In this document: positions 41,065 through 41,588 of the stretch, in pieces | Numbering within the stretch: position 1 is the stretch's first letter | Layout of the letters: each line of letters starts with the position of its first letter | Origin: Escherichia coli | Lineage (GTDB): Bacteria > Pseudomonadota > Gammaproteobacteria > Enterobacterales > Enterobacteriaceae | Assembly (NCBI RefSeq): GCF_003334305.1 | Contig: NZ_QOWS01000022.1 | Length of the DNA: 64,000 bases | Strand: one strand, 5' to 3' | Program-made: the position numbers and the translations under genes | Notes under the pieces: model-generated | What the model was told of the DNA's origin: nothing | What the model saw: the letters and a program-made list of their open reading frames with translations, nothing else | Database searches by the model: none

Positions 41065-41299
41065 TAGCAATACTCTTCTGATTTTGAGAATTGTGACTTT
41101 GGAAGATTGTAGCGCCAGTCACAGAAAAATGTGATGGTTTTAGTGCCGTTAGCGTAATGTTGAGTGTAAACCCTTAGCGCAGTGAAGCATTTATTAGCTG
41201 AACTACTGACCGCCAGGAGTGGATGAAAAATCCGCATGACCCCGTCGTTGACAACCGCCCCGCTCACCCTTTATTTATAAATGTACTACCTGCGCTAGC

Positions 41300-41560
41300 G
41301 CAGGCCAGAAGAGGCGCGTTGCCCAAGTAACGGTGTTGGAGGAGCCAGTCCTGTGATAACACCTGAGGGGGTGCATCGCCGAGGTGATTGAACGGCTGGC
41401 CACGTTCATCATCGGCTACAGGGGCTGAATCCCCTGGGTTGTCACCAGAAGCGTTCGCAGTCGGGCGTTTCGCAAGTGGTGGAGCACTTCTGGGTGAAAA
41501 TAGTAGCGAAGTATCGCTCTGCGCCCACCCGTCTTCCGCTCTTCCCTTGTGCCAAGGCTG
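41300..41560 (+). ncRNA. lysine riboswitch (L-box) in the lysC leader
   Basis: Long structured 5' leader of lysC containing the GAGGCGC core and multiple conserved stems (recalled lysC leader sequence). Confidence 0.75.
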
Positions 41561-41588
41561 AAAATGGATCCCCTGACACGAGGTAGTT

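Follow-up and report, generated by a model that had tools for sequence, protein, structure and literature searches.

The closest described system is the lysine riboswitch of Escherichia coli lysC itself, whose leader is numbered from the transcription start site in Ghosh et al. 2024 (PMC10946432), with G309 being the G of the AUG. L-lysine binding and the conformational change have been reported from experiments on exactly this E. coli leader (PMC10946432). Without lysine, an anti-P1/antisequestering stem forms, translation is allowed, and the RNase E sites as well as the rut site near +240 are hidden; with lysine, P1 forms, the Shine-Dalgarno (SD) sequence is sequestered, RNase E cleaves, and Rho together with NusG terminates at G309 and deeper in the open reading frame, the rut site near +240 being single-stranded in the lysine-bound state only (PMC10946432). 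The L-box of Bacillus subtilis lysC has the same aptamer family and regulates the same enzyme, and P1 formation on lysine binding is decisive there too; its expression platform, however, is an intrinsic terminator/antiterminator, whereas in E. coli lysC the SD is sequestered and RNase E and Rho act on the transcript. The thiC and ribB riboswitches of E. coli likewise have a C-rich rut site in the platform that is exposed only when the ligand is bound, with termination at a start-codon pause; they differ in ligand and aptamer, and the published lysC pause half-life is ligand-independent, unlike that of thiC.

Here, we report the analysis of the lysC upstream region in a 64-kb stretch of E. coli DNA (the window). 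The leader found in it is the same element (RF00168; PMC10946432) in the same species and in front of the same gene, with identical landmarks and no substantive difference. We consider 41283-41588 to be the lysC 5' untranslated leader with the experimentally characterised lysine riboswitch, and the open reading frame (ORF) antisense to it to be a chance frame, with a probability of about 0.97. The riboswitch is already known and annotated, and this result in itself only confirms a textbook annotation, showing at the same time that a riboswitch leader and a shadow ORF can be recognised from raw sequence.

The lysC leader and its lysine riboswitch

The region 41060-41900 is 100% identical to that of E. 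coli strain 120899, and the locus is present in every one of the 5426 complete E. coli genomes, in 5424 of them with a query coverage of at least 80%. The product of the downstream gene scores 766.7 bits against the equivalog model NF006570 of NCBIfam (lysine-sensitive aspartokinase 3). The main features are as follows.

39415-41070, minus strand: pgi
41248-41253, plus strand: -35 hexamer TTGACA, at -35 to -30 relative to the start site at 41283, read from the sequence
41270-41282, plus strand: -10 region TTTATTTATAAAT, the hexamer being either TTATTT (17-nt spacer) or TATTTA (18-nt spacer)
41283, plus strand: transcription start site (+1, G), from the numbering of PMC10946432
41289-41304 (RNA +7 to +22), plus strand: 5' hairpin (palindrome), by folding, with stem CCUGCG/CGCAGG and loop CUAG
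41301-41497, plus strand: lysine riboswitch aptamer (RF00168), by Rfam scan and PGAP feature
41498-41588, plus strand: expression platform, its helices being predictions of this analysis
41589-42938, plus strand: lysC, lysine-sensitive aspartokinase 3, by NCBIfam match

The Rfam scan placed the Lysine riboswitch family RF00168 on the plus strand at 41301-41497 with 99.5 bits (gathering score 30, E 3.1e-25), and the match is complete, i.e., it covers model positions 1-182 of 182 and is not truncated. In the PGAP/RefSeq annotation of the identical strain, a riboswitch is placed at precisely 41301-41497, and the opposite strand carries no CDS. All five helices (P1-P5) are present in the RF00168 alignment with few non-canonical pairs, P1 closing the junction; P1 itself is formed by 41305-41311 with 41487-41493 (CCAGAAG/CUUCUGG), a perfect 7-bp helix that is invariant in 31 leaders, and the conserved aptamer core AGAGGCGC ... 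GGAG.ACU is found as well. The aptamer lies on the sense strand of the lysC 5' leader and ends 92 nt before lysC. The full RF00168 match, the identical PGAP feature, the aspartokinase 3 gene downstream, and the fit of the published landmarks are the reasons why we assign this leader as the lysC lysine riboswitch, which bears out what an earlier note, made from the sequence alone, had proposed; none of our observations speaks against this assignment.

The start site was derived from the numbering in PMC10946432 and not from a promoter scan. With +1 at 41283, five published landmarks land on the correct letters, i.e., G309, G349, U354-357 (TTTT), A364, and Site1 at 250-253 (TCTT). Since the published numbering puts the start site at 41283, the leader is 306 nt long (41283-41588). 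The earlier note had a 320-nt leader starting at 41270; the leader is indeed there, but its length and start have to be corrected to these values, and 41270-41282 belongs to the promoter. The lysC promoter was not reported by the consensus promoter scan because its -10 region is weak. The -35 hexamer TTGACA is invariant in an eight-genus alignment, and TTTATTTAT in the -10 region is invariant across genera, whether the riboswitch is present or absent.

The flanks of the leader and other parts of the window hold further features. The pgi-proximal part of the intergenic region has an inverted repeat at 41092-41123, TGTGACT...(18 nt)...AGTCACA, mostly kept across eight genera, which may be a regulatory site for pgi. 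The yjbE-pgi intergenic region has an Rfam STnc430 match (RF02053, 69.1 bits) at 39257-39406 on the plus strand, opposite to both genes. Three Rfam naRNA4 matches (RF02564), at 58870-58947, 58968-59045, and 29856-29926 (minus strand), of which two are in tandem, resemble repeat elements of the REP/BIME type. Directly 3' of lysC, at 43077-44009 (plus strand), 44045-44845 (minus strand), and onward, there are genes annotated as zeta toxin family protein, nucleotidyltransferase domain protein, and slipin family protein; they are presumably absent from this position in K-12, and the block may be a strain-variable islet.

The expression platform was mapped partly from the published model and partly from our own predictions.

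41505-41518, plus strand: small hairpin, predicted
about 41520-41546, plus strand: C-rich rut/RNase E region, mapped from the published model
41532-41535 (+250 to +253), plus strand: RNase E Site1 UCUU, also part of the rut site, mapped from the published deletion of 250-253
41545-41551, plus strand: sequester strand CCUUGUG, predicted by inspection
41577-41583, plus strand: SD-side partner CACGAGG, containing the SD GAGG at 41580-41583, predicted by inspection
41591, plus strand: Rho/NusG termination and pause site G309, published and mapped
41631, 41636-41639, and 41646, plus strand: further Rho stops inside lysC (G349, U354-357, and A364), published and mapped

Briefly, when the published mechanism is mapped onto the window, the transcript begins at 41283 and the five-helix aptamer at 41301-41497 binds lysine. 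If lysine is missing, the C-rich platform is taken up by the 3' strand of P1 and its neighbours (by prediction, 41472-96 with 41526-50), which leaves the SD free and the RNase E and rut sites covered. If lysine is bound, P1 is formed and the platform released, the SD is sequestered (predicted CCUUGUG at 41545-51 with CACGAGG at 41577-83), RNase E cuts at about 41532-35, and Rho loads and terminates at the start codon and within the ORF.

We infer the exact ON and OFF pairings from folding and inspection. When the 5' strand of P1 was blocked in the fold, 41472-96 paired with 41526-50, in agreement with the published rut/RNase E region that is double-stranded in the ON state only; in the same constrained fold, the SD region paired with early coding sequence and not with the proposed sequester strand. 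The anti-P1 helix (41472-96/41526-50) is 89% pairable in 31 leaders, with changes only from G-C to G-U, and the sequester helix (41545-51/41577-83) is 96.8% pairable in 31 riboswitch-bearing leaders and almost invariant. Because these helices are nearly invariant, covariation neither supports nor refutes the exact P1, anti-P1, and sequester pairs. Please note that the unconstrained minimum free energy fold of the leader did not recover the aptamer and was no better than shuffles (z -1.5), which we take as uninformative here since this RNA depends on tertiary structure. The terminator scan gave no terminator-like hairpin with a U-run 3' of the aptamer on the plus strand.

The helix beside P1

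The sequence CCTGCGCTAGCGCAGG at 41289-41304 is a perfect 16-nt palindrome. As RNA it folds into a hairpin with a 6-bp stem and a 4-nt loop (dG -9.3 kcal/mol), the last base of which directly adjoins the first base of P1. The earlier note had seen a palindrome at the 5' edge of the leader; it exists, but it actually sits inside the transcript and abuts P1. The papers on the lysC riboswitch that we read make no mention of a hairpin at +7 to +22, and the word "hairpin" occurs 0 times in PMC10946432. The window contains three perfect palindromes of at least 16 nt versus 1.3 expected from shuffles, and because this count is unremarkable, any significance of the palindrome comes from cross-species conservation only. 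The other two are AAAGCCGGATGATCATCCGGCTTT at 21191-21214 (24 nt, terminator-like) and ATTATTAAATTTAATAAT at 6575-6592 (18 nt).

In other genera, leaders that carry the riboswitch also have a hairpin at this position, with stems of another sequence, e.g., CCCGCGC/GCGCGGG, CCUGUGC/GCACAGG, CUUGCGCAC/GUGCGCAAG, CUUGCUCAC/GUGAGUAAG, AUUCCC/GGGAAU, and UAUCUGC/GCAGAUA, and the loops are non-palindromic. Five of the six stem pairs are altered on both sides across 31 leaders, and the observed covariation score was reached by none of 500 shuffles; parts of the hairpin are misaligned by MAFFT (64.5% paired), and per-sequence folding is the better evidence. In that folding, most riboswitch-bearing leaders, but no riboswitch-less one, have a hairpin energy better than that of shuffles. 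Several stems hold G.U pairs, which are mismatches in DNA, and in 10 of the 11 cases in which sense and antisense folding are at least 0.9 kcal/mol apart, it is the sense strand that folds more stably. Moreover, of the 45 distinct upstream regions with a riboswitch, essentially all have a helix whose end lies 0-5 nt 5' of P1, this helix being either the 5' hairpin or the stem that closes a long palindromic insertion (see below). These counts come from phylogenetically related sequences, i.e., their independence is overstated. Taken as sequence comparisons, the compensatory and G.U changes, the sense-strand bias, and the helix kept beside P1 favour an RNA-level element rather than a DNA operator or chance.

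The better surviving of the two alternatives is that CCTGCGCTAGCGCAGG is a DNA operator at +7 to +22 for a dimeric regulator, as part of the reported promoter-level lysine control. Its perfect symmetry and its location just 3' of the start site, which is typical for repressors, would suit such a role; the unrelated stems with non-palindromic loops in other genera, the G.U pairs, and the better folding of the sense strand argue against it, and we regard the operator as improbable, at roughly one chance in eight. The half-site TAGCGCAG, which repeats at 41175-41182, was considered as an additional clue to an operator and was rejected; such repeats are at chance level, with eight such pairs in the region.

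Slightly less probable still is that the palindrome is a chance feature without function. The ordinary number of palindromes in the window is compatible with this, as is the fact that the riboswitch-less relatives manage without the hairpin, and six unpaired nucleotides lie 5' of the stem, which is more than usual for 5'-end-protecting hairpins. Against it stand the both-sided changes in the stem, which no shuffle equalled, the energies, better than shuffles for most leaders with the riboswitch and for none without it, and the helix kept within 5 nt of P1.

If the RNA-level hairpin is accepted, its candidate roles would include stacking on or delimiting P1, insulating the folding of the aptamer, and limiting 5'-end-dependent decay. 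The last one is reminiscent of the ompA-type 5'-terminal stabiliser hairpins, which are likewise stable stem-loops near an mRNA 5' end in RNase E-governed decay. The lysC hairpin differs from the ompA type in the unpaired nucleotides 5' of its stem and in its contact with P1, and a folding or stacking role seems equally plausible.

The open frame on the opposite strand

41264-41809, minus strand: 181-aa ORF with an ATG start, from the mechanical ORF list

The earlier note had already called this ORF almost certainly spurious. It overlaps lysC in antisense over 221 nt and the leader plus promoter over 325 nt. The antisense frame was anchored on the lysC codons and followed through 80 related loci. 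In 61 of the 80, E. albertii included, the frame meets a stop only a few codons past the site of the E. coli ATG, and the whole frame is open in only one of them (L002), a near-identical E. coli-like Escherichia. The translation has no NCBIfam family match, and no SD-like sequence precedes the ATG (upstream ...ACGTTCCAGA-ATG). Shadow ORFs are frequent in this DNA: of the 60 ORFs in the window with 150 aa or more, 16 shadow a longer ORF, among them those of 258 aa and 173 aa antisense to pgi. A stop-free frame across the 107 leader codons has a p of about 0.016 per frame in shuffles, which is uncommon for one frame but unremarkable since six frames are available and the G+C content is 56%. On the plus strand, a 57-aa ORF within the leader (41388-41561) also has no NCBIfam family.

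Because the frame is broken in relatives, no family is matched, and shadow ORFs are common, the antisense ORF is, as judged from these comparisons, spurious; it is a chance open frame in G+C-rich sequence that is partly non-coding and partly antisense to coding. That it is a genuine overlapping, E. coli-specific protein-coding gene, as its ATG start, its 186 open codons, and the "hypothetical protein" calls of a few depositors in E. coli and Shigella might suggest, is very improbable given the frame loss, the missing RefSeq/PGAP annotation and SD-like sequence, and an overlap that is mostly with RNA in which a known structure limits sequence change.

Now and then, gene callers do put this ORF into the databases as a hypothetical protein. 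The exact sequence belongs to an 18-member cluster of such sporadic deposits in E. coli and Shigella records. There are also 224-225 aa versions from Shigella dysenteriae, and records labelled Klebsiella pneumoniae and Vibrio parahaemolyticus, the latter two being probably contaminated or mislabelled assemblies.

Relatives with and without the riboswitch

Rfam scans were made for the 78 related Enterobacteriaceae loci with enough upstream sequence, a set in which Salmonella is not represented. RF00168 is present upstream of lysC in 46 of the 78 and absent from 32. Among the riboswitch-less loci are most Citrobacter, the Enterobacter cloacae group, Lelliottia, Trabulsiella, Pluralibacter, and Atlantibacter, and also Escherichia whittamii and Escherichia sp. 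E1V33. Many of the genera sampled do have the riboswitch, e.g., Klebsiella, Kluyvera, Cedecea, Buttiauxella, and Franconibacter. By our locus numbers, the riboswitch-less loci and those with long palindromic insertions are:

Upstream of lysC, about locus positions 900-1200, riboswitch-less: L004, L005, L007, L009-L018, L020, L021, L031, L036, L044, L045, L048, L051, L052, L059, L063, L068, L070-L072, L075, L076, L078, L080, L081
Long palindromic insertions: L006 at about 831-916; L029, L032, L035, L038 (Kosakonia); L023, L025, L027, L030, L053-L058, L064, L067 (Klebsiella/Raoultella); L061, L062 (Franconibacter)

The riboswitch-less leaders are about 77-90 nt long. What they keep is the promoter, TGCGC as a remnant of the left arm of the hairpin, and, at the 3' end of the platform, the final ~55 nt with TTGTGCC...CCCTGACACGAGGT, i.e., the ribosome-binding region and the putative SD-sequestering strand. 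The missing block is about 228 nt and corresponds to about 41305-41531 of the window. Since the riboswitch is present in many of the sampled genera, deletion appears to be the simpler reading of its absence from the 32 loci. No report that Salmonella, Citrobacter, or Enterobacter have lost the lysC riboswitch turned up in our literature searches; one paper describes the lysC riboswitch system as "well conserved within Enterobacteriales".

In several genera, P1 is separated from the hairpin near the start site by a long palindromic insertion. These insertions range from about 85 to more than 300 nt and are closed by a stem, TATTACC...GGTAATA, that ends 1-5 nt 5' of P1. They seem to resemble ERIC/IRU repeats.

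Putting the hairpin and the relatives together, we tentatively propose that the 5' hairpin (+7 to +22) functions within the lysC riboswitch of enterobacteria as a helix held directly against the 5' side of P1, and that the entire module of hairpin, aptamer, and anti-P1 strand has been deleted in many sister genera, leaving only the promoter and the SD-sequestering stretch. This proposal is drawn from comparison of upstream regions, and we would put it at clearly less than even odds. If it is true, the hairpin could tune the lysine threshold by stacking on or delimiting P1, or it could curb 5'-end-dependent RNase E attack, such that decay would be gated only by the internal sites exposed by lysine. 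The conserved helix abutting P1 would be open to tests with the lysC reporters that already exist. The relatives form a natural presence/absence series, even within Escherichia, that could serve as a comparison for what the riboswitch adds beyond promoter-level (ArgP) control and the allosteric control of aspartokinase 3.
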